Numbered from the stretch's first letter, positions 4,026 to 59,750 are shown. The stretch: DNA of 64,000 bases from Patescibacteria group bacterium (GCA_049315825.1 JBMOJK010000005.1:521-64520), one strand, 5' to 3'. The notes: generated by a model not told the origin, from the sequence alone. Made by a program: numbers and translations.

Positions 4026-6521
4026 TTAACTTGGATTTACGACTGGCTTCGCCTTCTCTGCTTCCGCCCTCAGCCTCTTTTCTTCTTTCTTCTTTTCTTT
4101 GAATTCTTCAGCGGCTTTTTGGAATTTCTTCTCGTCGTCTACAACCTTCATATTGAATTCAAGAATTTTTCGCTCTACGAGATCAACGGGTTTTGAGTAT
4201 TTCTCGCGAGATACTTTGATAACCACATCAGCCTGCTGTTCTGGCACAGTGAGACGAGATCTGATCGGTCCGAGTGTAGTTGCAGAGAACACAGGCGATG
4301 GCATACCATCGATGAGTAGCTTGGTATAAATATCGTATTTTCGGAGATTCATGAGGTCATTCGGAAGAACCATTTCTTCGTCGAGAACTTCCGAGAGCTT
4401 TGTTGCGTCATGAAATCCAACCTGAAACGACACGAGTGTACCTACGTTTCCGAAGACTGCACCCTGAACCGTTTCAGTCATTTGCTCAATGTACTGGTTG
4501 GCCATTACAAGATTGAGCTTGTATTTTCGAGCTTCAGAGAGAATCGTCGCAAAAGAGTCTGTCGCGAAGTTCTGAAATTCATCTACATAGAGATAGAAAT
4601 CCCGACGTTCATGCTCTGGGATATCCGCGCGGCTCATCGCATCAATCTGGAACTTCGTGACCATCATCGCACCAAGGAGGGCTGATGAATCTTCTCCGAT
4701 CGTCCCCTTTGGAAGCTTGATGATAATAATCTTCCCATTGTCCATCGCCCAGCGGAGGGAGAATGGGTTCTTTGGCTGTCCCAAGATATTTCGCATGAGC
4801 GGACTTGAGAGGAACTGTCCTACCTTGTTGAGAATCGGAGCAGCAGCCTCGGTCATCTGTCGTGGTTCGAGAACTTCGTATTCACTCGTCCAGAAACGTG
4901 CGAGGCTCGGGTCTTTGATCTTGGCTACGAGCTTGAGACGATACGACTTCATTGTGAGCATGAGCGGGATCGACATGATCGTCGTATCTGGCATCTCAAG
5001 AAGTGTCATGACCGTATTGCGCATGATGTGTTCAAGTCGCGGCCCCCAACTATCTCCGAAGATTTTCTTAAAAATCGAAACAAGTCCTGATGCTACGATC
5101 GGGCGAAGCTCAGGCTTCACCTGCTCAAGCATATTGAACGCGATCGGATGACGATAGTCCGATGGATCGAAGACGATAACATCGTTCGTACGATTCTTTG
5201 GAATGCATGCGAGAATAGTCTCTGCAAGGTCTCCATGAGGATCAACAAGCCCAACTCCGCGACCCTTTTGGATATCGTCGTAGATCATGTTCTCGAGGAG
5301 GGTCGACTTACCCATACCCGTCTTACCGATGACATACACATGACGCCTGCGATCATTAGGGAGAATACCAAAAGGCACTTCGCTTCCACGGAAATTAGTT
5401 ACTCCAAGCGGAGTTGCGTCGTCGTGTTGATCAATTGTTGGAATATTGTGTGGTGGTTCGAACTTCTTAGTAACGACCCAGTTGATACCTGGAGTTTTTA
5501 CATAGATGGTCGGCATATGAACAATCCCAGCAAGTTCTGCAGTATTGAGGTACATTCCATGTCGATTGGTACGATTGCGCAATGCTTCGTGTGCGTCAAG
5601 CTTTGGCGGACTCGCCTTGAGACTATTTCCGTTTGGTCGAGCAAAGATATTGAGCGAGGTGGCAATCTCCTTGAGAGAAGACCGGGCCATGACTTCGTTT
5701 GAAGTATATGAGGCAATGCGAATATCGACTGCATATCCAAATCCTTTGATCTTTTCTTCGAGCTCAAGTTTCTTGGAGTCATCCTTCTCGTGTCCACCAC
5801 CATGGTGATCATCATGTCCTTCGTCATGCGAGTTCCCACGTATCACCAAAAGCGCAAGTTTTCCAAGCGTAATGAGTGGAATCGTGACCATCTTAAAGAG
5901 GATTCCATACGGGGAAAGCAGGATTTTTTTGATCCATTTTGCTCGCTTAGAAGCAAGAATCTCGATCACATGTTCGTCCTTCCATTCACTGTCTAGGATC
6001 GGTGAGAAATTGACCTGAAAGACAACTGGCTCATTCTTGTTTGCCTTCGAGAGCGCACTCGTGAGAGATGAAAGCGGATCAACCGTTTCTTTTTCACTGC
6101 GATCCTTGAACTCGGTATAGATCTTGATTGGACGAAGGTACTCCTTGGCGAGCGCAAGCTCACTGATGAACGGACTATGATTAGGCAAGTATTCACCTAC
6201 TTCAGTGAGTTCTACATTTGGAAAATGTGCGTAGATCTGGTTTCGTAGAATATTGACATGCGTACGTGGTGCCCGGAAGAAGAATCGAATTACCCCGGCA
6301 ATATTCGCGATTTCAAATCCATACGGCACAAAATGTGTTTGGTGCTTATGAAAAAATCCGTGTGTGTGTTCATCTACGGTATTATGCAGAATGTTGAGAA
6401 TTTGCTCCGCCACAAAAACCCCTTTTTCATTAAGGCGGTCTACGCGGACTTCGAGGAGCGTGGATTCTGACATTGTTGGGGACAAATGGTCAAGGGGAGG
6501 ATTATAGAGAGAAAAGCTCAC
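4026..6521 (-). CDS. TraD/VirD4-like coupling-protein-type P-loop ATPase (FtsK/HerA superfamily) with long N-terminal domain of unknown function
   Basis: 831-aa ORF. Walker A VIGKTGMGKST, Walker B FYLYVDEFQNF. One internal hydrophobic segment followed by the His/Asp-rich stretch HDEGHDDHHGGGHEKDD. No in-frame TGA. Start is GTG 6521 or ATG 6473. Confidence 0.7.
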   Translation of the reverse strand: MSFSLYNPPLDHLSPTMSESTLLEVRVDRLNEKGVFVAEQILNILHNTVDEHTHGFFHKHQTHFVPYGFEIANIAGVIRFFFRAPRTHVNILRNQIYAHFPNVELTEVGEYLPNHSPFISELALAKEYLRPIKIYTEFKDRSEKETVDPLSSLTSALSKANKNEPVVFQVNFSPILDSEWKDEHVIEILASKRAKWIKKILLSPYGILFKMVTIPLITLGKLALLVIRGNSHDEGHDDHHGGGHEKDDSKKLELEEKIKGFGYAVDIRIASYTSNEVMARSSLKEIATSLNIFARPNGNSLKASPPKLDAHEALRNRTNRHGMYLNTAELAGIVHMPTIYVKTPGINWVVTKKFEPPHNIPTIDQHDDATPLGVTNFRGSEVPFGILPNDRRRHVYVIGKTGMGKSTLLENMIYDDIQKGRGVGLVDPHGDLAETILACIPKNRTNDVIVFDPSDYRHPIAFNMLEQVKPELRPIVASGLVSIFKKIFGDSWGPRLEHIMRNTVMTLLEMPDTTIMSIPLMLTMKSYRLKLVAKIKDPSLARFWTSEYEVLEPRQMTEAAAPILNKVGQFLSSPLMRNILGQPKNPFSLRWAMDNGKIIIIKLPKGTIGEDSSALLGAMMVTKFQIDAMSRADIPEHERRDFYLYVDEFQNFATDSFATILSEARKYKLNLVMANQYIEQMTETVQGAVFGNVGTLVSFQVGFHDATKLSEVLDEEMVLPNDLMNLRKYDIYTKLLIDGMPSPVFSATTLGPIRSRLTVPEQQADVVIKVSREKYSKPVDLVERKILEFNMKVVDDEKKFQKAAEEFKEKKKEEKRLRAEAEKAKPVVNPS

Positions 6522-8734: not shown

Positions 8735-10276
8735 ATGTTGCAGAAAATTTCGCAAAAAATCATCGGCATCATCTCATTACTTTCAGTCATCTGCTGTGGG
8801 TTTGCAGGATGGGAGTTTCTCATGATGAAGGAACTTAATATCAATGGTCCGCTTTACAAAAAGATTGATTCAGTAAAAGCTGCCATGGCGGATACTCTTC
8901 CCCCACCATTATTCATCGTCGAATATTTTTCTACTTCTCTGCAACTCTGTGAGACAGTAGAAAAAACAGAGCAAGCTAAGCTGATCAACAGGCTCAAAGA
9001 ACTGAAAAATGCATATCTTGAACGTCACGAATACTGGAAAAAGCAGGCCTTGAATGCAGATATCGCAAACATCCTGCTCAAAAAAGCTCACGATCCTGCA
9101 TTGCGTACTTTTAGCATTGTAGAACGTGAACTAATACCATTGCTGGAAAGCCTGGACAGCGATGCGATTTCGAATGCTCGTAAGAACATAATTGCAGCCT
9201 ACGAACCACATCGACTGGCTATCAATGAAGTCGAACCTCTCCTCACCAAAGAAAGCAATACTCATGAAGCCGAGGCAAATGAACGCCAACGCTTCATAAG
9301 CATCCTATTGCCCCTGGTTTTCGCTGCAGTACTTATGGCAGGCCTCGTAATAGCGATGCGTATCAGTCGAGGAATTACTCACTCTATCAACTCTGCGGTA
9401 AAAGCAGTCGAGCGAGTCGCACAAAATAATCTCACCGGTACCATCGAAGCAGAATCCAAAGATGAAATCGGTGTGCTCATGAATGCACTCAAAGATATGC
9501 AAGCAAATCTCGCAAATGTTGTTCATGGAATACGAACGGCGACTGGGGCAATCACGGTAGCTTCTGGCGAAATTGCGACTGGAAACCTCGATCTTTCCAG
9601 TCGCACTGAGCAGCAAGCATCATCTTTACAAGAAACTGCTGCTAGCATGGAAACTCTCACACAGGGTATTCAGAGCAATGCAAACGAAGCAAAAATTGCT
9701 AGCGAACTCGCGAGCAATACCGCAACACTTGCTCAAGAAGGAGGAGAACTTATCAAAGATGTAACACAAGTAATGAGTGAGACAGTTACTCACTCAAATC
9801 GCATGAGCGATATTATTAGTACCATCGATGGTATCGCATTCCAGACCAACATCCTCGCACTCAATGCAGCAGTAGAAGCTGCGCGTGCAGGTGAACAAGG
9901 TCGTGGGTTCGCGGTAGTTGCAACAGAAGTTCGCAATCTTGCTCAGCGTTCAGCTGCAGCCGCGGCTGAGATAAAAAAGCTAATCGAAAACTCGATTAGA
10001 AATGTTAACAAAGGTGCACTTCTAGTTGATGTTGCCAGTCAAAAAATGCAGTCAATCGTAACTGAAACAAAGAAGGTAACACAAATTATAGCTGGACTCA
10101 GCACTAGTGCCCTCGAACAAAGTAGCGGAATTATAGATGTTAATTCTGCTATCAGTGAAATGGACGGTGTCACCCAACAAAACGCAGCGCTCGTCGAAGA
10201 AGCGGCAGCTGCAGCGGAATCACTCAATGACCAAGCAGAAAAAATGCTTGGTGCAGTGAGTGTATTTCGTATCTAA
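8735..10276 (+). CDS. methyl-accepting chemotaxis protein (Tsr/Tar-like signalling domain, HAMP, two TM segments)
   Basis: 513 aa. Contains [43 protein letters not shown] and ends ...VSVFRI, like enterobacterial Tsr minus the NWETF tail. No in-frame TGA. Stop TAA. Confidence 0.92.
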
Positions 10277-19473: not shown

Positions 19474-19610
19474 ATCCAATGTTAGTAAGATTAAAAAAAC
19501 ATCTTTAAAGTTGGCAGCATATTGTCTATCACTAGAATGCAGTCACTTCATACTACAAATACCATCCTCCTTATTGTTGTATTTTGTATACAGTATTTAT
19601 TTATTTTTTT

Positions 19611-21445
19611 ATGAGAAAGATTTTACGGGGTTGATTACTCGCACTATTTGTTTCAGCCATGTTATCCTCTGTCTATGCAGAGGATCTTACACATTGTTCA
19701 AAGGAACAAGCAACACTCTCCCCGAATGTATGCGTATTGTACGATAAGTGAATTGATGCTATTAAGGATAAGAAGCTCGAACAAGCCGAGGTATACTTCA
19801 AGTGAGCAAAAGTGTATGCAACAAGTAAATGGGAAGTGGAGAATGTAGATGCTATGCTTGCATTTATTGCCGATGAGTACCTCAAAAAAACTACACCATC
19901 AGAGGATACATACTCATACAAGCAGTACTATTTGAAAACTATGAACATTCCTACAGCATGGAATGCCATAGGAAGTCCTAAGCAGGTAGTTGTTGCTGTA
20001 ATTGATGATTGATTGGATATTAGTCAGCCTGACCTCATAGATAGCATATGGATTGATCCGAGTGCACCCTACTGAGCAAGTAAAGTAAAGGACTTTGTTG
20101 GAGACAAACTAACTAACTATGCATCAGGGGAACATGGCACAATGGTGGCAGGCATCATCTGAGCCTCTACCAATAACTCCCTATGAATCGCCGGAATCGC
20201 AAAGAATGTCAAGATTATGCCACTGAGAGTATTTCCTATGACCTGAAGCGGTTGAGCAAAAGAAGAAAACATCATCAATGCAATGAATTATGCCATAGAT
20301 AATGGTGCAAATATCATAAACTTAAGCCTTGGAAAGAGTCAGTTTGCATATAGCGCAAACTTCGATGCAGTAATCAAAAAGGCTGCAAGCAAGAATATTA
20401 TCACTGTCATCGCCTCAGGAAACTGAGACGCATATACCAGCTGAACAAAAGGACTTGATCTCAGCATTAGCCCAATCTCGCCCGTCTGCAACAACGGTGG
20501 CAAGAATAATAAATTGTCTATTTGAGTAGGCTCAATAGGTAAAGAATGACGAAAAAGTGAGTGGTCTAATTTTGGAAATTGCGTAAATTTCTGGGCCCCT
20601 GGGGAAGACATTGTATCAACATCCATACCCCTCTCTATAGCGATGGTTACCGGTATGATATTAAGAATGGTACATCGTTCTCTGCACCTATCATCGCAGG
20701 CATCATTGCACTATGATACAATAAATACGGCAGCACTTCACCCGAGATCGTCTTTGACAGTCTAACAGAAAGTCTAAGTGACTTTAATTATTCAACAGAC
20801 AACGCGAACTTTACAAAACTCAAAGATAGAACTCAAACGGTGGATGCTGCAAAATATCTTGAAATTTTGGGTCGTAAGATTATGGAGGCAGCCACAAAGA
20901 AACCAACAACTGAGGTGAAACCGGCCGTTCCTGCTACAGACACTAAGAAGCCTCTCACATATTTTGAGTCACTCGCAGCATCGGGTGTGATCTCTATGCA
21001 ATCCACGGAGTCAGGATATCGTCTCAATGATCAGATTACACGCGCCGAGATTGTAAAGATTGCCATTAAGCTTTCGAATAAGTCTACTGTACCTTGTACT
21101 GGAAAAATATACAGTGACGTGAGTGACTCTATTGGAGACCTCTGTTGATATGTCGAAGCAGCAGCGCAAGCTGGCATGATATCAAAGAATAATTCAAAAT
21201 TTCGCCCCTTGGATCTGGTAACTAAGGCGGAAATGATCAAGATCATCCTAGCAGCAAAAAACGTGCAAATATCGCAAATAAATGCTGGATTTAAGGATGT
21301 ATCCTCGTCCATGGGCGACCTTGCCGGATACATAAACACTGCTGCTATAAAAGGATACATTGCTAAAGCTGATTTCTTTTTACCAAATACCTTTGCAGTA
21401 AGATCTGAAGTGTTTCAGTTGGCGTACAAGCTCATGGGACAATAG
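19611..21445 (+). CDS. secreted subtilisin-like (S8) serine protease with three C-terminal SLH-like repeats; apparent frameshift near 20628-20640
   Basis: Signal peptide MRKILRG-G-LLALFVSAMLSSVYA. Catalytic triad contexts VAVIDD-G, GEHGTMVAGII, GTSFSAPIIAG. About 15 in-frame TGA. Reading frame changes from frame 0 to frame 2 at the C-run 20627-20633. Stop TAG. Confidence 0.8.
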
Positions 21446-22147: not shown

Positions 22148-22286
22148 ATTAGCTGTTTGGATTGAATGGTTTTAGGCCTTGGATCGAAAGTCTAACTGCC
22201 GCGATACGAAATGCTAGTTCAATTTCAGCATTCGGATTCCCAGATGGTGCTCCATTATTTGATGACAGCCCTAGAATCCGTCCAAT

Positions 22287-22472
22287 GCGCCCCTGAGTAT
22301 GATCGCTGATTTCTCAAAACTCAGCTTGCGTATTGCGCCCCTGAGTATGATCGCTGATTTCTCAAAACTCAGCTTGCGTATTGCACCCCTGAGTATGATC
22401 GCTGATTTCTCAAAACTCAGCTTGCGTATTGCACCCCTGAGTATGATCGCTGATTTCTCAAAACTCGGCTTG
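22287..22472. repeat. tandem direct repeat, 48-bp unit x about 3.9
   Basis: Units 22287-22334, 22335-22382, 22383-22430 and a partial fourth from 22431: gcgcccctgagtatgatcgctgatttctcaaaactcagcttgcgtatt. Copies 3-4 carry gcac instead of gcgc. Each unit holds the inverted repeat ctgagt..actcag. Confidence 0.9.
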
Positions 22473-22770: not shown

Positions 22771-22847
22771 TGGAGCGGATAATGGGACTCGAACCCACAA
22801 CGGCCGCCATGGCAAGGCGGTACTCTAGCCAATTGAGCTATATCCGC
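22771..22847 (-). tRNA. tRNA-Gly (anticodon GCC), CCA encoded
   Basis: Acceptor GCGGATA/TATCCGC, anticodon arm CCGCC-TTGCCAT-GGCGG, T arm GTGGG-TTCGAGT-CCCAT, discriminator U73. Confidence 0.9.
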
Positions 22848-22861
22848 GAAAAGAATGAACC

Positions 22862-22940
22862 TGGAGCGAGGGACCGGGTTCGAACCGGCACACCCGAGGG
22901 TTGAAGCCTCAGTACACTCACTCTTTTATGTTACCCTCGC
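22862..22940 (-). tRNA. tRNA-Gly (anticodon UCA), the UGA decoder, CCA encoded
   Basis: Acceptor GCGAGGG/CCCTCGC with G1-C72, C2-G71, G3-C70 and U73 (glycine identity set). Anticodon arm (C)TGAGG-CTTCAAC-CCTCG(G). T arm GCCGG-TTCGAAC-CCGGT. Short variable loop, so not tRNA-Sec. Atypical D arm. Confidence 0.8.
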
Positions 22941-25236: not shown

Positions 25237-25262
25237 AAAAAGACTCCTTTCGGAGTCTTTTT
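25237..25262. terminator. bidirectional intrinsic terminator (Elp3/ncRNA unit versus surface-protein operon)
   Basis: Perfect hairpin aaaaagactcc-tttc-ggagtcttttt. Confidence 0.8.
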
Positions 25263-25275
25263 CTTATCTCAAATA

Positions 25276-28200
25276 TTATTGTGCAATCTTTGCGAGATTG
25301 TATTGATCGAGGTACTGAGAGAGCAGTGGTGGTGGATTCTTGAATGCTCGAGTCGAGTAGTTGATCGTAACACCCGTTGAGAGTGCAGTTGATGCACTCG
25401 TTGCTCGGATGTATGTTCGATCATTTACAAGATCAGCGATATTTGCATTCACGTTTCCATCTACAGCGAGAGGATTGGCAGTTTGACCTGCTCCAACCAT
25501 CTTACCGCTGAGCACGATGTAAACACCGGCAATATCTGTAACAGATGAGGTAACGATAATCGCCTTTCCATCTGCAGAAGCCTGCTTTACAACAAATGCC
25601 CAACTTGCCCCCGGATCAGCATAGGTGATATTTCCACGAATCTCAAGCGTTCCCTGATCGATCACGACCGTCTTCACCCCTGAGAGTGAAATATCTGCAT
25701 TGATCACGATCTTTCCCTTTGGAAGTGTGTAGAGATCAGGACTGTCTCCTACCTTTGAGAGACTGAGTTCAAAGTCAGACTGTGAGTTAATCGTTACCAC
25801 TCGATCTGCTGCAGTAGAAGCAGAAGATGCAAATTTCGAGATAGATGAGTCTTGTGAATCATTACGTCCGATTTCCTTTCCAGCCTGTTCAGCAGTGTTG
25901 GATGAAAGTGAGAATGCTGCATCCTTCGCAGAAGAAGTAACTGTGAAGTTTCCCTTCTTAAGACTATCGAGGAAGCTTTCTGTAATCGTATTAACACTAT
26001 AACCTACTCGACTTCCAACGTAAGCATTTCCTCCTGCTGTATTGCTGACAGCTGATCGGGCAACACGTACTGGGAGTGGTTCGATGAGATAGTTCAGTCC
26101 AACGAAGAAGTTATTCATGCGAACGGCTGAGCCAACAGAAGTTGGTGGATTTACATCTGTGCTTGCCTGTCCTGCAAGGATAGATGATGTATTACCAAGG
26201 AATTTTGTTCCGTTAAAAGCACCATTCTGATCTGCAGTAAAGAGTCGATAGTCACCACAGTTAATCACGGGTGCGTTTTCTCCAAGTTGCATCGTTCCGC
26301 GTCCAATACACGCATCATTGATGCTTCGATAGAGTGACTGCCCAGTGATGAGACCTCCTGGACTATTATTGACGAATCCAGCTGTAAGACCGTTAAGGGC
26401 GATTGGATATTCTGCTCGGATAGAGAATACGTCTCCTGGATTGAATGGATTTACATCGTTTCCGACGATAGCTCGCATATTGGATACAGGAGCTCCGTTG
26501 TAGAGAAGATCGATACCGTTGCCTCCTGGGTTCGTCCATCCAAGTGGACAGTCGAGCGCTCCGCGTGCACATGCACCTGGATTGGTCCATGCAGCTCGAC
26601 AGTTGTTACAGAATCCATTGTTGATTGGCATTCCTCCGTTACTTCCGGCATCACAGGTTTCACCTGCATCAATTCGACCATTTCCACAGAGACCTCCACC
26701 TCCACCTCCTCCTCCGCCACCGCTTCCTCCACCCCCAGGTGGAAGTGGTGCTCCAGTTGAACTAATGATCACTGGGCGCTGACAGTTCGTCGAGTCGGTT
26801 GAATTTTCTACGTAACATGCAATGTTGTATGTTCCTGACTTATTATAGAAACAACTTCCTGCGTTTGCTCCAATCGCTGCCTGACCATTTCCACACTCTA
26901 CACGATAGCTTGGGTTTGGCCCCGCAGTTCCTGCATTCGCGCTACAAACAAATGATACGCGATATCCATTGTCCACTTGGATGTTAGACTGAATTTCAAG
27001 CGATTTACACGCCCCTGGACCTCCACCCCCACCGTTTGAAACAGTTACTGGCACTTGGCAGGCTGCTGGAGTTGGATTAGCTCCGTTTACTACACACGAT
27101 GCTACAAAGTTCCCTGGAGTTGTATATGTACAGTTTCCTGTAGCCGCATTGATCGTTTGACCATTTCCACAACTGATCGCAAATGTTGGATTTGCACCCG
27201 CAGCAGTTCCTGCGATACAAGACATCGCAGAAGTGAGATTTCCTGAAGTAGACGTATTAGGAGTTGCAGTGAGTCGTCCACAGATTCCGGTTCCACCCGC
27301 TGCAAATGTAGCAGTACACACACCACCAACAGCACTTCCATTACATCCCCAAGTATAGGTTACTATACCACCAACTGGAGCACTTTCAGTGAAACCATTC
27401 ACAGTCTGACCTGCTGGACAGAGATTTGGAGTTGTGGCAGTAATTGCAGTGGTAAGTGGGAGGGTAATTGTACCGATCACACAAGCGGGTGCAGATGGAG
27501 TGTATGATGCTGCACAGAGACCTCCAACCTGAGAGCCATTACAGCTCCATGTATAGTTGGTTGTTGCACCAACAGTTGTAGCGGTAAATCCACCAACTGT
27601 TTGACCAGCCGGACAAAGACCAACAGAGGCCGAGGTAAGCGGAGCAGTCTGTGGTCCAGTGGTTGGACCAGGTGTACACGCAAGATTTGCTGGATTGTAG
27701 GTTGCACTACATGTCCCACCAACTGCTGATCCGTTACAGCTCCAAGTATAATTAATACCAGAACCAACATTTACTGCTGTAAAATCACCAACTGTTTGAC
27801 CCGATGGACAAAGTCCGAAAGATGCAGAGGTAAGCGGAGCTGTCGGAGGAAGTGAGATAGGACCTCGCTGACACGCTGGACCAGTTGCTGAATACGTCGC
27901 AGTACATTCACCACCGATCGCACTATTGCCACACGCCCAGAAATAATTCGTTGTATTTCCTGAGATCGTTGATCCAAATCCGACTACTGGCACACCTGCC
28001 TTACAGAGTCCAGGACTTCCTGATGTAATCGGACCTGTTAGCGGAAGTGCAATATTTCCTCGTTCACAGGCGAGTGGTGGTTCAGTGACAACTGTACATT
28101 TTGCGCTACAAGTCGAACCTGGCTTTCCGTTCTGAGCACCTAAGTCACATACTTCGTTATATTTTGAATCGACTACGCCGTCACCACACCAAGTGATTTC

Positions 28201-28641
28201 ATACGATTTACATTCACTATGACTCTCAACAATTGAGCTCTGAACGCCGTTTACTATTGGTGAATACTCAACAACATAGCGAACCGTAAGATTATCCTTT
28301 GCTCGAACAGGAGGGGAGAAAATCACTGGATAACTCGAATCTGTTTCAGCAATAATCCCTGCTTCACCCGACTGTACTACTCCATTTCGACTAAGAATCC
28401 ATGGAGTCCAGGCATAATTAATAGGTGCAGACGAACCGTTATAGTCATATTTCTCATTAAATTCCGGAAAGAAATTGATAACCTGAATCGGGGTACCTGC
28501 TTCATTGGCAAGAGTATCGTTAAAACGATAGCTGTGCCCCACTCGAAGCGTGCCTTCAAATGTCTGATCACAGGTTGCTGCAGATGCAAACGCTGGAAAC
28601 AAAACAAGGAGGAGTCCTGTTAGAATAACCGAATATTTCAT
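25276..28641 (-). CDS. secreted 1121-aa Cys-rich repeat protein (putative surface/adhesion protein)
   Basis: Signal peptide MKYSVILTGLLLVLFPAFASA. Two CGDG/CGNG...C..C Cys-rich motifs. Four repeats of about 65 aa (see 27301..28071). Poly-Gly tract. 400-aa C-terminal domain. Zero in-frame TGA. Stop TAA. Confidence 0.8.
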   Translation of the reverse strand: MKYSVILTGLLLVLFPAFASAATCDQTFEGTLRVGHSYRFNDTLANEAGTPIQVINFFPEFNEKYDYNGSSAPINYAWTPWILSRNGVVQSGEAGIIAETDSSYPVIFSPPVRAKDNLTVRYVVEYSPIVNGVQSSIVESHSECKSYEITWCGDGVVDSKYNEVCDLGAQNGKPGSTCSAKCTVVTEPPLACERGNIALPLTGPITSGSPGLCKAGVPVVGFGSTISGNTTNYFWACGNSAIGGECTATYSATGPACQRGPISLPPTAPLTSASFGLCPSGQTVGDFTAVNVGSGINYTWSCNGSAVGGTCSATYNPANLACTPGPTTGPQTAPLTSASVGLCPAGQTVGGFTATTVGATTNYTWSCNGSQVGGLCAASYTPSAPACVIGTITLPLTTAITATTPNLCPAGQTVNGFTESAPVGGIVTYTWGCNGSAVGGVCTATFAAGGTGICGRLTATPNTSTSGNLTSAMSCIAGTAAGANPTFAISCGNGQTINAATGNCTYTTPGNFVASCVVNGANPTPAACQVPVTVSNGGGGGPGACKSLEIQSNIQVDNGYRVSFVCSANAGTAGPNPSYRVECGNGQAAIGANAGSCFYNKSGTYNIACYVENSTDSTNCQRPVIISSTGAPLPPGGGGSGGGGGGGGGGLCGNGRIDAGETCDAGSNGGMPINNGFCNNCRAAWTNPGACARGALDCPLGWTNPGGNGIDLLYNGAPVSNMRAIVGNDVNPFNPGDVFSIRAEYPIALNGLTAGFVNNSPGGLITGQSLYRSINDACIGRGTMQLGENAPVINCGDYRLFTADQNGAFNGTKFLGNTSSILAGQASTDVNPPTSVGSAVRMNNFFVGLNYLIEPLPVRVARSAVSNTAGGNAYVGSRVGYSVNTITESFLDSLKKGNFTVTSSAKDAAFSLSSNTAEQAGKEIGRNDSQDSSISKFASSASTAADRVVTINSQSDFELSLSKVGDSPDLYTLPKGKIVINADISLSGVKTVVIDQGTLEIRGNITYADPGASWAFVVKQASADGKAIIVTSSVTDIAGVYIVLSGKMVGAGQTANPLAVDGNVNANIADLVNDRTYIRATSASTALSTGVTINYSTRAFKNPPPLLSQYLDQYNLAKIAQ
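27301..28071 (-). repeat. four tandem ~65-aa four-cysteine modules inside the 1121-aa protein
   Basis: Protein residues 191-447: AC.(R)G...LP.T.P(I/L)TS.S.GLC.AG..V.GF......G..TNY.W.C(N)GS..GG.C.A.Y repeated four times. Confidence 0.75.
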
Positions 28642-28650
28642 GGAAATGTA

Positions 28651-28878
28651 TTAGGGTTTGAGGCTCTTTGGGCCAGAGACTTTAGTGCTACCGGAATCCT
28701 GGGCTGTACCGAGCACAGGTGTAACACCTCCTACTTCGACTACGCCCTGGGATTTTTCTTCGGTTTGTCCTGCGATCTCAGCCTTCTGTGCTGGTGATTT
28801 AGACATAACGAAGTATATGCATACACCAAGAATCGCAAGTGCCAAGAGCGCAAGAACTACAATATATGATTTTTTCAT
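28651..28878 (-). CDS. small single-pass membrane protein (75 aa)
   Basis: MKKSYIVVLALLALAILGVCIYFV TM helix then a polar tail. 9 nt upstream of the 1121-aa gene and 27 nt after the 1311-aa gene. Confidence 0.5.
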   Translation of the reverse strand: MKKSYIVVLALLALAILGVCIYFVMSKSPAQKAEIAGQTEEKSQGVVEVGGVTPVLGTAQDSGSTKVSGPKSLKP

Positions 28879-28905
28879 AGGAAAAATGATGAAAAGTGGC
28901 TATTC

Positions 28906-31900
28906 CTACTTCTTTGGAAATGTACCTGGTCCACCTGTATTCTGACCACCTGGCGTCTTCGTTGTTCCACCCTCTGTGCCGTCATTGACTGTTTCTTCTC
29001 TTTCGCCTGGAGTAGTGGTGATTTTTGATTTCTCAATCGTCTTGCTGATAGCCTGCTCTACTACTTCTCTCTTATAGTTGATGCCGAATGTTGCCTCGCT
29101 CGTGCTTGATTCGTTTGTATAGACATCACCATTGTATTCTTCTGCAATGCTGAATGCTGGCTTTGCAATGACTGGTGCAGGCTCTACATGTTTTCCTTTG
29201 ATCTTCATCACTGGATATCCGAGCGCATAGACGTCATTGATACACACTGCACCCTGAACCATGGCTCGCGCAGTAACAAAGAGGGCCTTTGGACCATTTT
29301 CAACGATTCCACTCAGTCGTGTTGGGATAGTATTTGAGAGGAGATATGCCTCATATTCTGCAGAATCAAATCCTGCTACATCCTTTGGAAGAAGTGCATT
29401 TGTTGCGACACGATTCTTCTCAAATTCTCCTGAATTTTTAGCAATCTTGAGAATATAGCTCTGAAGAACTCGGTTTTCTGTAGCTGAAACCTTGTTTACT
29501 ACATCGAGATCTCCACTGAAGTACGCAAGTCCACGAACGGTAGTCTTACCACTCGTATCAAGCTGTGCAAGCGTGATAGATCCTGAGATATTTCGGAAAG
29601 GACCATTTCCATCACGGGTGAATGCATCTGCAAGACTTCCACGAACGAGCGTTTCCTTGCCGTTCTTGTGCGCCATGATCGCCTTATCGTGCTCTTCGTA
29701 CGCCTTGAGGAATTCTTTCTGATCCGCCTTGTCTACTCCGAGAATTCGATTGAATGCCTTCTTATTTCGATTGTGTTCTGCAAGCGCCTCAGCATAAGAA
29801 ATATTCTTCTTTGCACGGATATTGCGGCCTCCGAGAGTAGCGAGGAGGATGTTTTCGAGAATCTCATCCTTATCGCCTGGGTTGCACTTATCAAGAGATG
29901 CCTTGAGGAAAGCAAGGGATTTTCCACCTGCAGCGATCTGCTTTTCGGCTGCACCATATTCACGCTTTGCGATCGAATTGAGTGCAGAGATGAGGTGAGA
30001 ATTCGTGCGAGAAAGTGAGAAAATCTTGTTTCGAGCCTGCTGTGAAAGCACTCCATCCTTATAGATATTCTCAAATGTTCCTGCCTTATCTTCTGGTCCT
30101 ACCTCCTGAGTGGTTTCAGTTGCAGACTTGATCTGTGGAACACCCTTTACTTCCTTGATCACGATACCATACATCGCAATACCTTCACCCGACATGAATG
30201 ACTTACTCTCAACACGCAGTGAGTTTCCTGGAGTAGGGATTACCTGAGCAATACCATTTACTTCTGTGAGCTTTACGCTATCGAGGACGATGAGGCCTGA
30301 TTTTACGTCAGCCGCTGATCGCAGAGTGATGCTTTCGTTCTTTGGATCATATCCGGTGACGAACTTCTTGATCACCTCAGTTTTACTAAGATCAGATGTT
30401 TCTGACTTGAGTACCTTGCGCTCTGTCGCATCGACATCTTTATTTTTGGAAGCTGACTGATTGACGTGCTGGAAATTCACGCCGAGGAAGATTGCATGGA
30501 TCATCGGGATGAGCGTGATGTTCATACCAGCAACATGGAATCCCTTAAGGCTATCATGCACTGCTGCTGCATATACCTGCTCAAATGCAGCAGTATCACG
30601 AAGGATGATAAGCTTCTTTTCTCGGATGTCAGGGTTGGCATCTACGACCGCCTTTGTTTCAGCAATCATCTTGCGCATTACAGAAACTTCTACGAGAAGA
30701 GCTTCGTCGACTGGCTTAGCAGCATTTGCCTGTTTTTCGATCTCAGCGAGCCGAGCACTGATCTTTGTATCATCGAGGCGTCCATCTTCAGTAAGTCTGA
30801 TGAGTGGCCACATTTCCTTGATCGCAACACGCTGCTCCTTGATTGTATCCTTTACGTTGTTTGGATTGACATTAAATCCGATAGAAGGAATTGCTCCGTT
30901 TCCGGTATTTCCAGTTACTGCGAGTTCTCCACCAATAGTGAAATTCCCCTTGAGATTGCTTGACTGAAGTGTTGCATTGTTATTACTTGTTGTAACATCA
31001 GCGCGTCCTGAAATGGTGATTGGGAAAATCACTCCATCCGCACTTCCAACCATAGAGGCTCCTACTCCTGCCTCTGCTGAGTAACCCTTTCCTTCTACCT
31101 GCATCGCTCCAACATTGAATCCGATGACGATATTTGGAGTAATCTTTGTTTCGCGTTTCTTTTCATTTTCCTCGCTCGTAAGCTCTCTCTTTGTAGTGGT
31201 ACCTTTCTGATCTCCAGTGAGTGCAGGAGTTAAAGGATTTATTGGAGCATTCTTTGTGAGAGTTGTTTGTTGTGTAGCACCAACCTCAGACTTGTTGCCA
31301 GCTGCAACCACACTCGACTGATTCTTTGTAATTACAACATCCTTCACATATTGTGTGAAAGTATGTGTATTTACATTGGCATTGCTGCGTGGATCTGCAA
31401 TTATTGTTGTAGGATACGGCTGATTGATTTTTGTATCAGCAGTGGTTGTATAGGTTTTTGTATTGATCGTTGTATCTGTCACCTTAGTCGATGCTCCAAC
31501 TGACGAGAAGAATCGTGGATTGATCGAGATCTGAAATGCAGTTCGAGCAAGAAGCTCATCCATCGTTTTCGCATCAAGATCGGCAAATCCTGCCTCCTTA
31601 AGCTGACTGCTTACGCGATTTGGAAGTCCTTCCTTCACAAGTGCAGACTTGATAAATTCGATCGTGTTTGCCTGTTCTTTCGCACGTTCGTTCTTGTAGT
31701 CACGAGCCTTCTGGGTATCGAGTTTTGCAGCAACTTCTGGAGTTGTCTGAGCGGCTTCCGTGAGAAACGATCGCTGGAATTCCTTCACGAGGAGTGCAAA
31801 CTTCTTTGGATCTGCGAGCTTTGCCGCAATATCCTTAGCATCACCTCCTGTTACCTTCGAAATAACTGCAACGAGATCTGCCTGTGAATTTACGCGCTTG

Positions 31901-32841
31901 CTGAGATTTGCATACATCGCAAGTTCTGTCGCGATATGGAGCTGTGCGTCCTTTCCACCTCCAAAAAGCTTCTGAAATGCAGCAAATACAAATGTATCAC
32001 TGTATTTCTTTGTGTTCATTGAAGTAAGCATTCCGTCGTGACTAAAGTCTACGAGCTGTGCAAGCTGATTACGCGCTCTGTCGGCTTCGGAAAGGTTTTT
32101 AATCTTATCAGCATTTGTTTCAACGCGAACTGATCGCTGAATATTTGTCCCCTCCTTGAGGAGAGTATTTACTTCGGGCGTCTTGATCGCATCACGAAGT
32201 TCGAGGATGGCAGAAAGTTCACTACGGCTGTAGAAATTATCGTTTCCAAATACATATCGTGCACGTGTGATATATCCGTGCTTTTCGAGCGCTGCCTTGA
32301 AGTCTGCGGACTCGTCCGTTCCGTCGTCAGTTCGTACCGAACGAACATTCGTGTTGTTCTTGTTGAAGTTCTTAAAATCCTCTGGATGCTTAAGAAGAAT
32401 ATCGAGTGCATCGTTGAAATTGAGGCTTTCTTCGAATTTTCCACGAAGCCCCTTTACCACACTGTGTACCGTCGAGAGTGTGTTGAGACCCTTCTTTGAA
32501 TCCTCATAAATCGCGATTACGCTCTGCGCAAATTCACGTGCATTCTTTGAGGTACCCATGTGCTTCTCGAAGATCGCAACAACCTGTTCAGTTGGGACGC
32601 CTGACTTGAGAGCCGACATTGCCTGACTTACTAGGATTGAGAAATTTGCCTGATGCTCGAGTCGCTCGATGAGATTGTTTTTCTGTTCAGTTGGAAGCTT
32701 GGAGTTTGCAACTGTTGAAAGGAGCTCTTTTGTCGCATCTGGATTGCTCGCAGGTGCAGTAGAAGGAGCTGGAGTGGCTTGCTTTTCAGCATTCTGTTCA
32801 AGGAAAAATCGAACATGACCGTAAGAATATGGGGACTTCAT
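28906..32841 (-). CDS. orphan 1311-aa protein, no recognisable domain or signal peptide
   Basis: Single uninterrupted ORF with no in-frame TGA. Stop TAG. Thr/Asn/Gly-rich beta-like central segment. Helical N- and C-terminal regions. Confidence 0.78.
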   Translation of the reverse strand: MKSPYSYGHVRFFLEQNAEKQATPAPSTAPASNPDATKELLSTVANSKLPTEQKNNLIERLEHQANFSILVSQAMSALKSGVPTEQVVAIFEKHMGTSKNAREFAQSVIAIYEDSKKGLNTLSTVHSVVKGLRGKFEESLNFNDALDILLKHPEDFKNFNKNNTNVRSVRTDDGTDESADFKAALEKHGYITRARYVFGNDNFYSRSELSAILELRDAIKTPEVNTLLKEGTNIQRSVRVETNADKIKNLSEADRARNQLAQLVDFSHDGMLTSMNTKKYSDTFVFAAFQKLFGGGKDAQLHIATELAMYANLSKRVNSQADLVAVISKVTGGDAKDIAAKLADPKKFALLVKEFQRSFLTEAAQTTPEVAAKLDTQKARDYKNERAKEQANTIEFIKSALVKEGLPNRVSSQLKEAGFADLDAKTMDELLARTAFQISINPRFFSSVGASTKVTDTTINTKTYTTTADTKINQPYPTTIIADPRSNANVNTHTFTQYVKDVVITKNQSSVVAAGNKSEVGATQQTTLTKNAPINPLTPALTGDQKGTTTKRELTSEENEKKRETKITPNIVIGFNVGAMQVEGKGYSAEAGVGASMVGSADGVIFPITISGRADVTTSNNNATLQSSNLKGNFTIGGELAVTGNTGNGAIPSIGFNVNPNNVKDTIKEQRVAIKEMWPLIRLTEDGRLDDTKISARLAEIEKQANAAKPVDEALLVEVSVMRKMIAETKAVVDANPDIREKKLIILRDTAAFEQVYAAAVHDSLKGFHVAGMNITLIPMIHAIFLGVNFQHVNQSASKNKDVDATERKVLKSETSDLSKTEVIKKFVTGYDPKNESITLRSAADVKSGLIVLDSVKLTEVNGIAQVIPTPGNSLRVESKSFMSGEGIAMYGIVIKEVKGVPQIKSATETTQEVGPEDKAGTFENIYKDGVLSQQARNKIFSLSRTNSHLISALNSIAKREYGAAEKQIAAGGKSLAFLKASLDKCNPGDKDEILENILLATLGGRNIRAKKNISYAEALAEHNRNKKAFNRILGVDKADQKEFLKAYEEHDKAIMAHKNGKETLVRGSLADAFTRDGNGPFRNISGSITLAQLDTSGKTTVRGLAYFSGDLDVVNKVSATENRVLQSYILKIAKNSGEFEKNRVATNALLPKDVAGFDSAEYEAYLLSNTIPTRLSGIVENGPKALFVTARAMVQGAVCINDVYALGYPVMKIKGKHVEPAPVIAKPAFSIAEEYNGDVYTNESSTSEATFGINYKREVVEQAISKTIEKSKITTTPGEREETVNDGTEGGTTKTPGGQNTGGPGTFPKK

Positions 32842-32936
32842 AGGTGGAAAAATAAGTTACTTCTCAACGTTATCATAGATTTTTCCCTTGCGCAAATATC
32901 CGAGATATTGTTTTGCGCCCAAGTCAAAGAAATATA

Positions 32937-32966
32937 AAAATCCTCCTATTTTACTAGGAGGATTTT
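32937..32966 (-). terminator. intrinsic terminator/attenuator after the 245-aa surface-protein gene
   Basis: 10-bp stem aaaatcctcc/ggaggatttt. On the reverse strand it is followed by TTTTTATATTT. Confidence 0.6.
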
Positions 32967-33096
32967 CAGATTTCTTGGAACTTCCCCAAGTCGTAGGAAA
33001 ATCGATGAGATTTGCACGAAACGTGAGCACCGCAGTAAGGTGTAGCAATAGCTACTCCGCACGAGGAGGCGCAACGATGAGTGCAAATATCGCGGT

Positions 33097-33834
33097 TTAA
33101 CTACGACGCTTTCTCGCGAACATGAATGCGAGGGCGAGGAGCATAGCAAGTGCTACAAAGAGGAATGTATCAGCCGCACCTGTCTTTACCTTAGTTGCTT
33201 GAGTTGGAGTAGGAACGATCTTTACTGGAGTAGAAACCGAAGCAGTTGGAACGTCAGCAGAGAAAGCCACACACTCAAGATGCTTTTGAACATTTCCAGG
33301 CTTACCAGTCTGATCAGAAACATCGTGGTAGTTTACTGGGAACTTAAGGAGAGCAACGTAAGCACCCTTCTTTACATCTGTCTTTTCAAGCTGGTAGTAT
33401 GCACCGAACTCGCTGTCCATAACACGAACTGTCTTCCCTGGCTTGAGTGAGAATACACTACGAGCCGCACCAGATGAACTTGAAGACTCAGGAGTGAAGA
33501 TGATTTCAGAACCGAACTTCCAGAACTTACTGTCGTCTGTAGGATTTGAGAGGAACGAAGTTCCGTTTCCACCGAGGTTTACGAGAGTAGGATTTACCTG
33601 TTCATCCTTGTAGATGATCTGTTCTGTAGAATTCTTATTAGTCCAACTATCGTAGAGACCAGTGAGCTTCTGACCAGAAGTAAGCGTTCCGCCTTCGAAA
33701 CACTGGTTACAGCTGTTTGTTCCAAAAAACGTCTGAGTACCACAAGCAACCTCCTTATAATCACCGCTGGCAGCGAAAGTGAATGGAGTGAATGCTAGGA
33801 GGGCTCCTACGATGAGCAATCGTGATGCCTTCAT
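33097..33834 (-). CDS. secreted 245-aa surface protein with C-terminal cell-wall-sorting-like signal
   Basis: Signal peptide MKASRLLIVGALLAFTPFTFA. C-terminus ...ATKVKTGAAD-TFLFVALAMLLALAFMFA-RKRRS (motif, hydrophobic helix, basic tail). Has its own strong promoter and terminator. No TGA. Confidence 0.7.
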   Translation of the reverse strand: MKASRLLIVGALLAFTPFTFAASGDYKEVACGTQTFFGTNSCNQCFEGGTLTSGQKLTGLYDSWTNKNSTEQIIYKDEQVNPTLVNLGGNGTSFLSNPTDDSKFWKFGSEIIFTPESSSSSGAARSVFSLKPGKTVRVMDSEFGAYYQLEKTDVKKGAYVALLKFPVNYHDVSDQTGKPGNVQKHLECVAFSADVPTASVSTPVKIVPTPTQATKVKTGAADTFLFVALAMLLALAFMFARKRRS

Positions 33835-33866
33835 AGAGGGAAAATATAAAATATATACGTCTGACG

Positions 33867-33894
33867 GATAATAGCCTCACAGACAACGATGTCA
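33867..33894 (-). promoter_or_regulatory. sigma70-like promoter of the 245-aa surface-protein gene
   Basis: Reverse strand: TTGACA, 16-nt spacer, TATTAT, about 30 nt upstream of ATG 33834. Confidence 0.55.
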
Positions 33895-33904
33895 AAAAAT
33901 ATTT

Positions 33905-38966: not shown

Positions 38967-39680
38967 TTACCTGAAGACTACCAGTTCGAAGTAAGTAGAT
39001 TGGCTGTACCGTTCCATCATAATCATGAAGTCGCGTACCTTCCACCAATCATCCATTTCAGGACCACTTTGGTATGCCTGAGAACTATCCCGGACAAATA
39101 CATACGCATCGCCGGGATTAGTCGCACCGTCTGTGTTATAGCCAACGATCACATACGCATGGCCGATGGGATTTGTTGTTCCCATGTTGCCAGGTTTGCC
39201 CAAATCCCAGTTTGCAAATGTGACTATTGGTGAATTGCGGTTGAGAATCGCATCCTGAATTTTTGCTAAAAAACCAGCATGGTTAGGGGCTCCTGTTGCT
39301 GTCACTTTTGGTACAGTAACGTTTGCTGCCGAAGGCATGTTGTAATTCTTTTTTGCAGCAGTTAGTATGTCGTATAAAGACGCACACCAACCATTGCCAT
39401 TGATGCCACCACCTGGACAGCGGTTCATGGCATATTGACCAGGGGAATTCGTCAGGAAAACCGAATGAATATCACTGAGCGTGGGGACAGGCTTATCCTT
39501 ATTTATCCATCTGGTAACCATTTTAAGAGCAGTGTGACCACACCAATATTTCTGGGTTGGATTCTCATTTGGATCAAATTCATACGCATGCGTAACGTAT
39601 GGATTTAAGCTCACACGCTCAGCATGAGCAAGACTTCCAAAAACCAAAGCAATACCTGCTACGAAGAAACGTAACTTCAT
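38967..39680 (-). CDS. secreted papain-fold (peptidase C39-like) cysteine peptidase
   Basis: AGGAG Shine-Dalgarno 39687-39691. Signal peptide MKLRFFVAGIALVFGSLAHA. Candidate Cys in KYWCGHTALKMV and His in IGHAYVIVGYN. No TGA. Stop TAA. Confidence 0.6.
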   Translation of the reverse strand: MKLRFFVAGIALVFGSLAHAERVSLNPYVTHAYEFDPNENPTQKYWCGHTALKMVTRWINKDKPVPTLSDIHSVFLTNSPGQYAMNRCPGGGINGNGWCASLYDILTAAKKNYNMPSAANVTVPKVTATGAPNHAGFLAKIQDAILNRNSPIVTFANWDLGKPGNMGTTNPIGHAYVIVGYNTDGATNPGDAYVFVRDSSQAYQSGPEMDDWWKVRDFMIMMERYSQSTYFELVVFR

Positions 39681-39730
39681 TTGAAACTCCTTTGTATGTT
39701 TGTTTGATGCCCTCAGTCGAGAGCTGACGC

Positions 39731-39758
39731 AGCATAAAAAATAGATTAATTCTGTCAA
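39731..39758 (-). promoter_or_regulatory. sigma70-like promoter of the secreted peptidase gene
   Basis: Reverse strand: TTGACA, 16-nt spacer, TATGCT. Confidence 0.45.
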
Positions 39759-58646: not shown

Positions 58647-59750
58647 ATGAGGTACTCTATTTTCAGACAAAACCAAAACCAATTTATGACATCACTCGAA
58701 ACTGGGACAAATCATCCCCTTTCTCCGCTCGATGCCCTTGCTCAGATCGAACAAGAGACACAAACTGCGCTTGATCCGCTCGCTATAGTAGATCACTCCG
58801 CACCAACATCAACTCAAACTGATGCCATTATTGCTGCGACGGCTATCGGGGTTTCTGTAGCACTCGATCCACTGAGTGCAGTTGGATCATCAATCACTCT
58901 TTCGGCTCCAGCGATCGTGAAGCAAGCAAAGAATCTCAAGAAGAATATTCTTGAGAAGCTCAAATTTCTTGTGCACTATGTTGCAGTTTCTTCTGTTGTT
59001 TTTGCTATTTTGCTCGTAAGTACGAACTGGAGTGCATACTACACAATCGCGATGAATACGATCAATCCAGGTGCACTCAAGGCATCAGGTCTTGAGATGA
59101 CAGAAAGTCTTTCGAAATCAAAGATCACAGTATTTGCGAGTGGGGACGGTGAGTCAGCAAACACAAACACGAAGAAAGAACAGGCACAGGACATCAAGAA
59201 GCAGCTCGAGGCTGACAATGTTACAATTCAGGAAGATCCATTCTCGATGAAGCATCTCCTCCCTTCTGAACCAAATATCAAGGTAGGATTCGAGATTACT
59301 CCGTACGAAAACCGCCTCATCATCCCAAAGATCGGGAAAAATATCCCACTCGTGGATATTATGCCGAGCGCAAACTTCGACTTCGATCACATGGAAAATA
59401 TTTTCATGCAGGAACTTGAGAAGGGTGTGGTACGATATCCTGGAAGTGCCCTTCCAGGAGAACAGGGAAATTCATTCATCTTCGGACACTCATCGAACTA
59501 TCCTTGGATGAAGGGAAACTATAACGATATCTTCGCTCTCCTCGACGACCTCGAATACGGTGATGAGATCATCGTTTACTACAACCAGAAGAAATTCGTC
59601 TACGTAATTCGTGAGAAGAAAGTGGTCACTCCCGGTGATGTAAAGGCACTTAACCGTGATCCAAATGCACATGAGCTCTCACTCATGACATGTTGGCCAG
59701 TAGGAACAACTCTGAAACGAATGCTCGTATTTGCAGAACTTCAAAAATAA
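58647..59750 (+). CDS. sortase-family transpeptidase with long N-terminal extension and TM anchor
   Basis: Catalytic His in NSFIFGHSS, Cys in LSLMTCWP, Arg in TLKRMLV. TM segment VHYVAVSSVVFAILLV. Confidence 0.85.
   Translation: MRYSIFRQNQNQFMTSLETGTNHPLSPLDALAQIEQETQTALDPLAIVDHSAPTSTQTDAIIAATAIGVSVALDPLSAVGSSITLSAPAIVKQAKNLKKNILEKLKFLVHYVAVSSVVFAILLVSTNWSAYYTIAMNTINPGALKASGLEMTESLSKSKITVFASGDGESANTNTKKEQAQDIKKQLEADNVTIQEDPFSMKHLLPSEPNIKVGFEITPYENRLIIPKIGKNIPLVDIMPSANFDFDHMENIFMQELEKGVVRYPGSALPGEQGNSFIFGHSSNYPWMKGNYNDIFALLDDLEYGDEIIVYYNQKKFVYVIREKKVVTPGDVKALNRDPNAHELSLMTCWPVGTTLKRMLVFAELQK

Follow-up and report, generated by a model that had tools for sequence, protein, structure and literature searches.

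A conserved four-gene surface locus with a divergent giant-protein cassette in UGA-glycine Gracilibacteria, a candidate for partner recognition

The DNA analysed here, referred to as the window, is a stretch of 64,000 nucleotides from a Patescibacteria group bacterium (GCA_049315825.1, JBMOJK010000005.1:521-64520), and its subject is a block of four genes, A to D, that lies beside the gene frr. A codes for a secreted protein that is the conserved member of the locus, B for a giant protein, C for a small protein and D for a second, secreted giant (Table 1). The block appears to be a lineage-specific surface locus of Gracilibacteria that read UGA as glycine (genetic code 25) and, as far as can be judged from sequence, its most likely role is the strain-specific recognition of, and attachment to, a partner or host cell, a reading that we hold with moderate confidence. 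New here are the four-gene cassette fixed beside frr, a relaxed [VT][KE]TG[AP] sorting signal with a near-invariant helix, a module common to A and the tip of D, a signature of allele replacement and a giant B family for which no relatives could be detected beyond the clade. The general kinds involved (sortase substrates, giant adhesins of PKD type, variable surface islands) are already known.

Related loci were fetched through A and their open reading frames (ORFs) were re-called with code 25; loci that extended far enough were counted as informative (n = 22). The first-pass annotation of this DNA had proposed co-localisation of the four genes in other genomes as a check, and the outcome is positive: the order frr (on the opposite strand), A, B-like, C-like, D-like is kept in 20 of the 22, which come from different species-level genomes. 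The B-like proteins (910–1400 aa) have no signal peptide and carry a Pro/Gly/Thr-rich end, and the D-like proteins (750–1840 aa) have a signal peptide. The C-like proteins (59–101 aa) have a lipobox or a membrane anchor and are usually, but not always, present. The cassette order persists where elp3 or mfd has moved (loci L029 and L032), and also at deep divergence, with mfd down to 42–55% identity. Searching the literature for a described Gracilibacteria cassette of this kind gave nothing specific.

Comparison with the closest relative, locus L003, separates the cassette B–C–D from its surroundings: the synonymous divergence of these three genes is about twofold (four-fold sites) to three- to fourfold (dS, synonymous divergence per site) that of A, frr and mfd (Table 2). 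Four-fold sites were counted under identical residues only, which removes alignment error. At these sites B and D are as divergent from L003 as they are from the more distant L004, and nucleotide identity falls from ~0.9 to 0.57–0.78 just beyond the 3′ end of A. In one genome A is 87% identical where B is only 45% identical, and locus L036 is a mosaic, with an identity of ~0.90 in mfd and of ~0.97 from A through the spacer into the start of B. The raised synonymous divergence therefore means that the cassette alleles are older than their flanks or have been exchanged. By their substitution pattern the B–C–D alleles are each under purifying selection, and the divergence pattern as a whole is what frequency-dependent selection would leave where the cell meets other cells or phages.

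Table 2. Divergence of the locus and neighbouring genes from the closest relative, L003
Gene	Amino-acid identity	dS	dN/dS (nonsynonymous/synonymous)	Four-fold-site divergence
mfd	97%	0.48	0.04	0.29
frr	96%	0.43	0.05	0.24
A	95%	0.39	0.08	0.25
holA	91%	0.70	0.07	0.33
B	65%	1.58	0.16	0.53
C	65%	0.87	0.26	0.43
D	72%	1.62	0.13	0.60

Phages could also be the main agents of this pattern, with the locus forming an envelope or coat structure that binds no partner and that varies under pressure from phages whose receptors are B or D (a receptor-evasion island). An island of old, divergent alleles between conserved flanks is equally classic for phage-receptor loci and for adhesins, and the strong conservation and possible abundance of A may fit a coat. 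We nevertheless regard this as rather unlikely, as no S-layer or SLH-type domains were matched in the Pfam and NCBIfam searches, and the tip–stalk–base layout of D, with tips exchanged as modules, is that of an adhesin. The two readings are compatible and not mutually exclusive.

The product of A consists of a signal peptide, a globular domain of ~170 aa with four invariant Cys residues, a spacer rich in Pro and Thr and, at the C-terminus, a sorting signal. Its N-terminus, MKASRLLIVGALLAFTPFTFA-AS, has a hydrophobic segment at residues 3–24 that is kept across the family and qualifies as a Sec signal peptide. The first-pass annotation had called A a sortase-type substrate, and this is supported by a marginal match to the LPXTG_anchor model TIGR01167 (16.2 bits, cut-off 15.9), by the conserved motif, helix and basic tail and by a sortase gene in the window. 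The motif itself reads VKTGA; the canonical Leu and Pro are absent and only T-G-[AP] is invariant over the 26 loci scanned, every one of which has x[VT][KE]TG[AP] followed by a hydrophobic helix and a basic tail. In all, 34 homologues of A were found, and each one retrieved keeps the motif, the helix and the basic tail; the signal is also present in all 24 of the proteins aligned and is nearly invariant in 21 of them, the consensus of the closer relatives being T-x-V-K-T-G-A-A-D-T-FLFxGLAMLLALAFMFA-RKRKS.

The sortase (Pfam Sortase, 80.5 bits, E = 1.2e-22; generic model TIGR01076, 50.5 bits against a cut-off of 39.35) passed none of the class A–F models and is a candidate for the enzyme that anchors A. 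Most likely, A would be exported by Sec and attached covalently to the wall by this sortase through the relaxed x-[VT]-[KE]-T-G-[AP] signal. A literature search for a sortase motif in the candidate phyla radiation (CPR) found nothing specific. As a separate observation, the sortase carries an N-terminal extension of ~225 aa.

The globular domain of A recurs in part at the start of D. The A family aligned to an alignment of 11 D tips (that of the window included) with an hhalign probability of 97.7% and E = 2e-12 over 47 columns, and the motif common to the two is C-[ND]-Q-x-F-x-G-G-T-L-x-x-G...D..TN. The A-family profile also matches the N-termini of the D-like proteins in L005, L008 and L021 (hmmsearch 42, 28 and 22 bits, respectively; BLASTP E = 6e-10), and H-x-E-C-x-x-Y closes both the A domain and the D tip. 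From these alignments we take the A domain and the D tip to be homologous at the N-terminal Cys motif.

D runs, in order, from the tip (residues 22–150) through a CGDG motif (at residue 152), four 4-Cys modules, two 6-Cys PKD-like modules, a Gly linker and a CGNG motif (at residue 652) to the base, and contains 42 Cys residues. The four 4-Cys modules, each of 65 aa (residues 192–452, ~27286..28068), are 48–66% identical to one another, and the two 6-Cys modules of ~90 aa (residues 454–632) are 33% identical. The second of these matches PKD_4 marginally at residues 549–622 (27.5 bits, cut-off 27), with PKD and PKD_3 below threshold. The linker, PPGGGGSGGGGGGGGGGL, is followed by a C-terminal region of ~450 aa that ends in ...TRAFKNPPPLLSQYLDQYNLAKIAQ. 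The sequence thus bears out the Cys-module anatomy described in the first-pass annotation (the CGDG and CGNG motifs, the four 65-aa modules, the two larger modules and the Gly linker). The 65-aa pattern C..G....P.T.P.TS.S.GLCP.GQTVG.FT...G..NYTWSCNGS.VGG.C.A.Y recurs in the D-like proteins of the distant loci L015 and L032; no Pfam model scored above threshold for this module, which is a candidate for an uncatalogued extracellular repeat. The CGDG and CGNG motifs resemble the myxobacterial Cys-rich repeat TIGR02232, although D scores below the threshold of that model (10.7, cut-off 20.8).

Treating D as an orphan, as had been suggested at first, did not hold: it belongs to a Gracilibacteria surface-protein family, from which ten homologues were retrieved and whose members carry PKD, DUF11/CLIPPER and DUF7507 domains. 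CLIPPER is an isopeptide-bond domain (PMC12617251); DUF11/CLIPPER (PF01345) gave no match in the D of the window and is present in four of the ten family members scanned. The parts of D vary to different degrees. Over the more distant relatives the tip (residues 1–150) is 7–36% identical and barely alignable, and the number of stalk modules varies among relatives; the CGDG motif and the blocks of the base are 57–90% identical in the nearer relatives. All complete D-like proteins end in ...[ST]RA[FIL]xNPPPLL[ST]x[YF][LV]xxY[NS][LV]x[KR][IV].., an ending that is unique to D within the window. No covalent anchor is found in the sequence of D. An AlphaFold2 model of residues 640–1121 is confident only for ~943–1077 (~135 residues), which are all beta; the weak Foldseek list for this model leans towards beta-helix proteins, which we take as a hint only. 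Two proteins with a type IV prepilin-like leader (…GFTLVELIVV…) lie near D-like genes, one in L029 (16057..18024) directly after the D-like gene and one in L026 (20077..20547) ~2.4 kb beyond it; this may be coincidence.

Sequence searches with each of the four proteins covered PDB, Pfam, NCBIfam, PHROGs and PADLOC; PDB was also searched with family profiles built for A, for D and for the C-terminal domain of B. The only matches above cut-off in the library searches of the four proteins were the marginal ones to PKD_4 and LPXTG_anchor; the PDB matches were rejected as glycine-linker artefacts, and no PADLOC match was obtained for any of the four as a part of anti-phage defence. C is predicted from its sequence to have a basic N-terminus and one helix that anchors it in the membrane, with the remaining ~45 aa exposed outside the cell as a tail. 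In other clades the C-like proteins (59–101 aa, as above) are lipoproteins with a lipobox.

B has no match in Pfam, NCBIfam, PHROGs, PADLOC or PDB; Pfam likewise gave none for seven further members of the B family and for six relatives of B from an exhaustive search, and a family profile of the C-terminal domain found no relative in PDB. Two homologues were found among 5.8 billion clustered proteins, and exhaustive single-sequence phmmer of 1.84 billion representatives gave 24 relatives, mostly fragments of 70–470 aa. The B-like proteins at the matching position of related loci form a connected network of weak BLAST similarity that is strongest in the C-terminal domain of ~350 aa. Homologues of B and D in distant relatives contain 12–27 in-frame TGA codons, and standard-code gene callers split such UGA-rich B homologues, so that the orphan look of B is partly an artefact. 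Of the initial description of B as an orphan, the statement that it matches no known family therefore stands; positional homologues exist, however, in many Gracilibacteria, where code-11 gene calling has split them.

According to its composition and a low-confidence model, B has a helical N-terminal third, a Thr-rich stretch (residues 450–570), a Gly-rich beta region (570–660) and a hydrophobic segment (770–788), beyond which the same model has mixed helix and strand and the protein ends in a Thr/Gly/Pro-rich tail. The C-terminal domain (~930–1250) is conserved, with the motif PKFxxxRAxxxGxxCxND and invariant Y, L, F, R, A, C, N and P residues. A single Gly/Ala/Val-rich hydrophobic segment is kept in most B-like proteins, at a position that differs between clades. 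As it has no signal peptide but a central Gly-rich hydrophobic segment, B is probably a giant, fast-evolving, membrane-associated accessory protein; more speculatively, it could leave the cell by a non-classical route and insert into a membrane. The idea that B and D are homologous in their C-terminal domains was tested and rejected (hhalign E = 0.71).

These features of B could also be read as those of an attack or feeding device, in which B, as an effector or translocator exported by a non-classical route, inserts through its Gly-rich hydrophobic segment into the membrane of the prey once D has docked the cell. B is without a signal peptide yet lies in an operon with exported proteins, most B-like proteins keep the Gly/Ala/Val-rich hydrophobic segment and the Gly-rich beta region, the invariant Arg, Cys and Asn of the C-terminal domain could be an active site, and predatory relatives degrade the membrane of their host (PMC8080830). 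In the library searches, however, B resembled no toxin, no pore-former and no substrate of a secretion system, no route of export emerged and the hydrophobic segment sits at different positions in different clades, so this role is in our judgement quite improbable. Polymorphic toxin loci, moreover, are arranged the opposite way round: here it is the N-terminus of D that varies, and there is no immunity gene downstream. With a conserved D C-terminus and no toxin domains in the Pfam, NCBIfam and D-family scans, the locus does not classify as a polymorphic toxin or contact-dependent inhibition (CDI) system. A broader version, to which we give little credence, would make A–B–C–D the host-recognition and contact apparatus of the clade, with the D tips, exchanged as modules, setting partner specificity and with B as the first of a new class of giant signal-less proteins with a Gly-rich hydrophobic segment, which would be exported non-classically, insert into the partner envelope and open a feeding contact.

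The four genes might instead be neighbours by descent that do not work together. A has a promoter and terminator of its own, all of the loci come from one clade and two of them keep A without B–D, but the order outlasts both the rearrangement of each flank and deep divergence, the gaps within B–C–D are only 27 and 9 nt, and a module is common to A and the D tip; we thus consider mere neighbourhood to be very unlikely.

The reading of UGA as glycine is concluded from the in-frame TGA codons of the mfd orthologues, which align to invariant Gly columns, and from the presence of a tRNA with anticodon UCA (Table 1). TAA or TAG is the stop codon of every gene in the window and many genes contain in-frame TGA, so that table-11 ORF lists truncate many of them. 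The related loci all come from Gracilibacteria, 'Peribacteria' or Patescibacteria metagenome-assembled genomes (MAGs), and these together with the tRNA and the TGA codons at conserved Gly confirm the CPR lineage that had been proposed from the sequence. The four ORFs of the block contain no in-frame TGA, and their table-11 translations are therefore correct. None of the 260 Gly codons of the block (25276..33834) is TGA, against 7.9% in the rest of the window (naive P ~5e-10), and TGA is also missing from 17 of the other 42 genes there; expression level or the origin of the alleles may lie behind its absence. A foreign origin argued from the absence of TGA was rejected after TGA had been counted in relatives. 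The missing TGA codons and the raised synonymous divergence of B–D would fit a block that came in recently as foreign DNA or that is left over from a prophage, but such an origin is hardly credible: the in-frame TGA in the B and D homologues mark these genes as native to code-25 genomes, TGA-free genes are common elsewhere in the window, no PHROG matches were found, the position beside frr is fixed, the GC content of the block is similar to that of its surroundings and allele exchange among Gracilibacteria is already within the main explanation.

Several observations in this part of the window stand by themselves. A 48-bp tandem repeat (3.9 copies, 98% identical, 22286..22472) separates the tRNA-Arg gene from those for tRNA-Gly and tRNA(UCA). 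An ORF for an S8 subtilisin-like secreted peptidase (19584..20765, plus strand), identified from reading the translation only, contains 13 in-frame TGA codons, the highest density in the window, and is wholly missed by table-11 ORF calling. A VirD4/TraG-like type IV coupling-protein homologue (831 aa, 4026..6521, minus strand) and a methyl-accepting chemotaxis protein with a HAMP domain (513 aa, 8735..10276, plus strand) are notable for a reduced CPR genome.

Recognition and attachment, the reading that we prefer, would work as follows. A, expressed from its own promoter and closed by its own terminator, would be exported by Sec and then attached to the wall by the sortase, and B–C–D would be expressed as a single transcription unit. 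D would be a Sec-exported, extended fibre with a variable tip, the start of which is homologous to the A domain, a disulfide-stabilised stalk of immunoglobulin (Ig)/PKD-like modules and variable length, and a glycine hinge leading to a conserved beta-rich base. As D is without a covalent anchor, it would be retained through its base, held on the cell by the membrane-tethered C (translated immediately upstream), by B or by both. B would be a membrane-associated accessory protein with its central Gly-rich hydrophobic segment, and B–C–D together would make up a replaceable, recombining cassette between conserved flanks. Host attachment may reasonably be inferred, and would accord with the proposals made for the giant PKD/DUF11 proteins of Vampirococcus (PMC8080830) and the large extracellular proteins of a closed BD1-5 genome (PMC6851277).

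A number of points weigh against this proposal. Loci L020 and L025 hold A but not B–D, and synteny inside one clade could partly be common descent. The A–D homology spans only ~47 columns and is weak with the D of the window alone. B is without a signal peptide, and its sequence thus leaves a surface location unsupported; an AlphaFold2 model of B residues 95–1290 has a mean predicted local distance difference test (pLDDT) score of 36.5, and no fold search was therefore made with it. Foldseek comparison of the D C-terminal model with PDB and BFVD gave nothing significant (best E = 0.33, in PDB). The raised dS rests mainly on one close comparison (L003) and one short contig (L036), and a scan of Joint Genome Institute (JGI) metagenomes for close relatives of A, meant to serve a population test, gave only seven distant loci.

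The coordinates of the locus are given in Table 1. The four ORFs, the gaps of 27 nt (B–C) and 9 nt (from the C stop codon to the D start) and both terminators agree with the first-pass annotation, and the promoter-like site that it had placed before A is present, with coordinates 1 nt off those given there. A and frr diverge from a common spacer of 122 nt, and the site lies within it. Such sites are no commoner in this region than in shuffled sequence, so that the significance of this one comes from its quality and position only. Signal-peptide-like N-termini are seen in A and D and none at the N-terminus of B. An RNA element in the A–B spacer was looked for and discarded, as Rfam gave none. 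A convergent elp3-like gene lies downstream of D and its terminator. On the other side of the locus, an insertion of 2.3 kb relative to L003 (37560..39940) between mfd and holA holds two genes for secreted proteins, one of which (38967..39758, minus strand) is a C39-like peptidase (Pfam 31.7 bits).

Table 1. Positions of the locus and associated features, counted from the first letter of the window
Feature	Positions	Strand	Description
Gene A	33097..33834	-	245 aa, secreted; conserved member of the locus
A sorting signal	33097..33192	-	KVKTGAADT, helix FLFVALAMLLALAFMFA, RKRRS, stop codon
Gene B	28906..32841	-	1311 aa, no signal peptide
Gene C	28651..28878	-	75 aa, single N-terminal hydrophobic segment
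Gene D	25276..28641	-	1121 aa, secreted, modular
Promoter-like site of A	33868..33895	-	TTGACA-16-TATTAT; 11/12 consensus, best in region; consensus match only
Intrinsic-terminator-like hairpin after A	32935..32968	-	14-bp stem, then T-rich tail; separates A from B–C–D
Terminator closing B–C–D	25237..25262	-	AAAAAGACTCC-GAAA-GGAGTCTTTTT; perfect 11-bp stem, GAAA loop, T run; direct reading, absent from the scan output
tRNA, anticodon UCA	22862..22940	-	Labelled 'SeC' by ARAGORN; ordinary tRNA by Rfam score; adjoins tRNA-Gly(GCC)
tRNA-Gly(GCC)	22771..22847	-	
Sortase gene	58647..59750	+	367 aa, catalytic LMTC motif; outside the coordinates of the first-pass annotation, 25 kb from the block

We know of no Gracilibacteria that have been cultured with a known host. 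For the question of partner specificity in episymbionts the locus is a concrete, testable candidate determinant that can be followed in metagenomes, by comparing D-tip type with co-occurring hosts, and in proteomes. B and its relatives are a large uncharacterised family without detectable kinship to known domains, and protein databases contain too few of the giant 'orphans' of code-25 genomes, because gene callers that use the standard code cut these at UGA.

Among the known systems that come close are the giant membrane and surface proteins of predatory or episymbiotic CPR bacteria. In Vampirococcus lugosii, a related predator, giant membrane proteins with PKD/DUF11 modules have been proposed to attach the cell to its host (PMC8080830), and a sortase and large extracellular proteins have been reported from a closed Gracilibacteria BD1-5 genome (PMC6851277). 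These resemble the present case in being very large exported proteins of PKD/DUF11 type in reduced genomes that read UGA as glycine; the locus described here differs in having a four-gene cassette at a fixed site, a conserved anchored partner, a signal-less giant and allele replacement. In the literature searched on giant proteins of predatory and episymbiotic CPR bacteria, no description of a four-gene cassette with allele replacement was found.

A shares with the LPXTG surface proteins of Gram-positive bacteria, such as the MSCRAMM-type adhesins, its signal peptide, the Pro/Thr-rich wall-spanning spacer, the TG motif, hydrophobic helix and basic tail, and a sortase in the same window. It departs from them in the motif, [VT][KE]TG[AP], and in a helix that hardly varies from species to species, an unusual property in a sortase signal; moreover, the sortase here fits no defined class and the adhesin-like giant D is without such an anchor.

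Hypervariable surface loci such as those for O-antigen and capsule are kept by frequency-dependent selection. Like these loci and the 'metagenomic islands', B–C–D shows a sharp drop of identity between conserved flanks and raised synonymous divergence with purifying selection inside the alleles; in contrast to them, its variable unit is two giant proteins and a small lipoprotein rather than a glycan-synthesis cluster.

Finally, the cytadherence operons of Mycoplasma pneumoniae, a wall-less and reduced obligate associate, encode the exported P1 adhesin with the very large accessory proteins HMW1–3, which are without signal peptides and carry Pro-rich or low-complexity regions. The pairing of an exported adhesin with very large signal-less accessory proteins is alike in the two cases, and a scaffold role of B comparable to that of the HMW proteins might be imagined, but it is only an analogy: there is no sequence similarity, and Gracilibacteria have peptidoglycan and a sortase.

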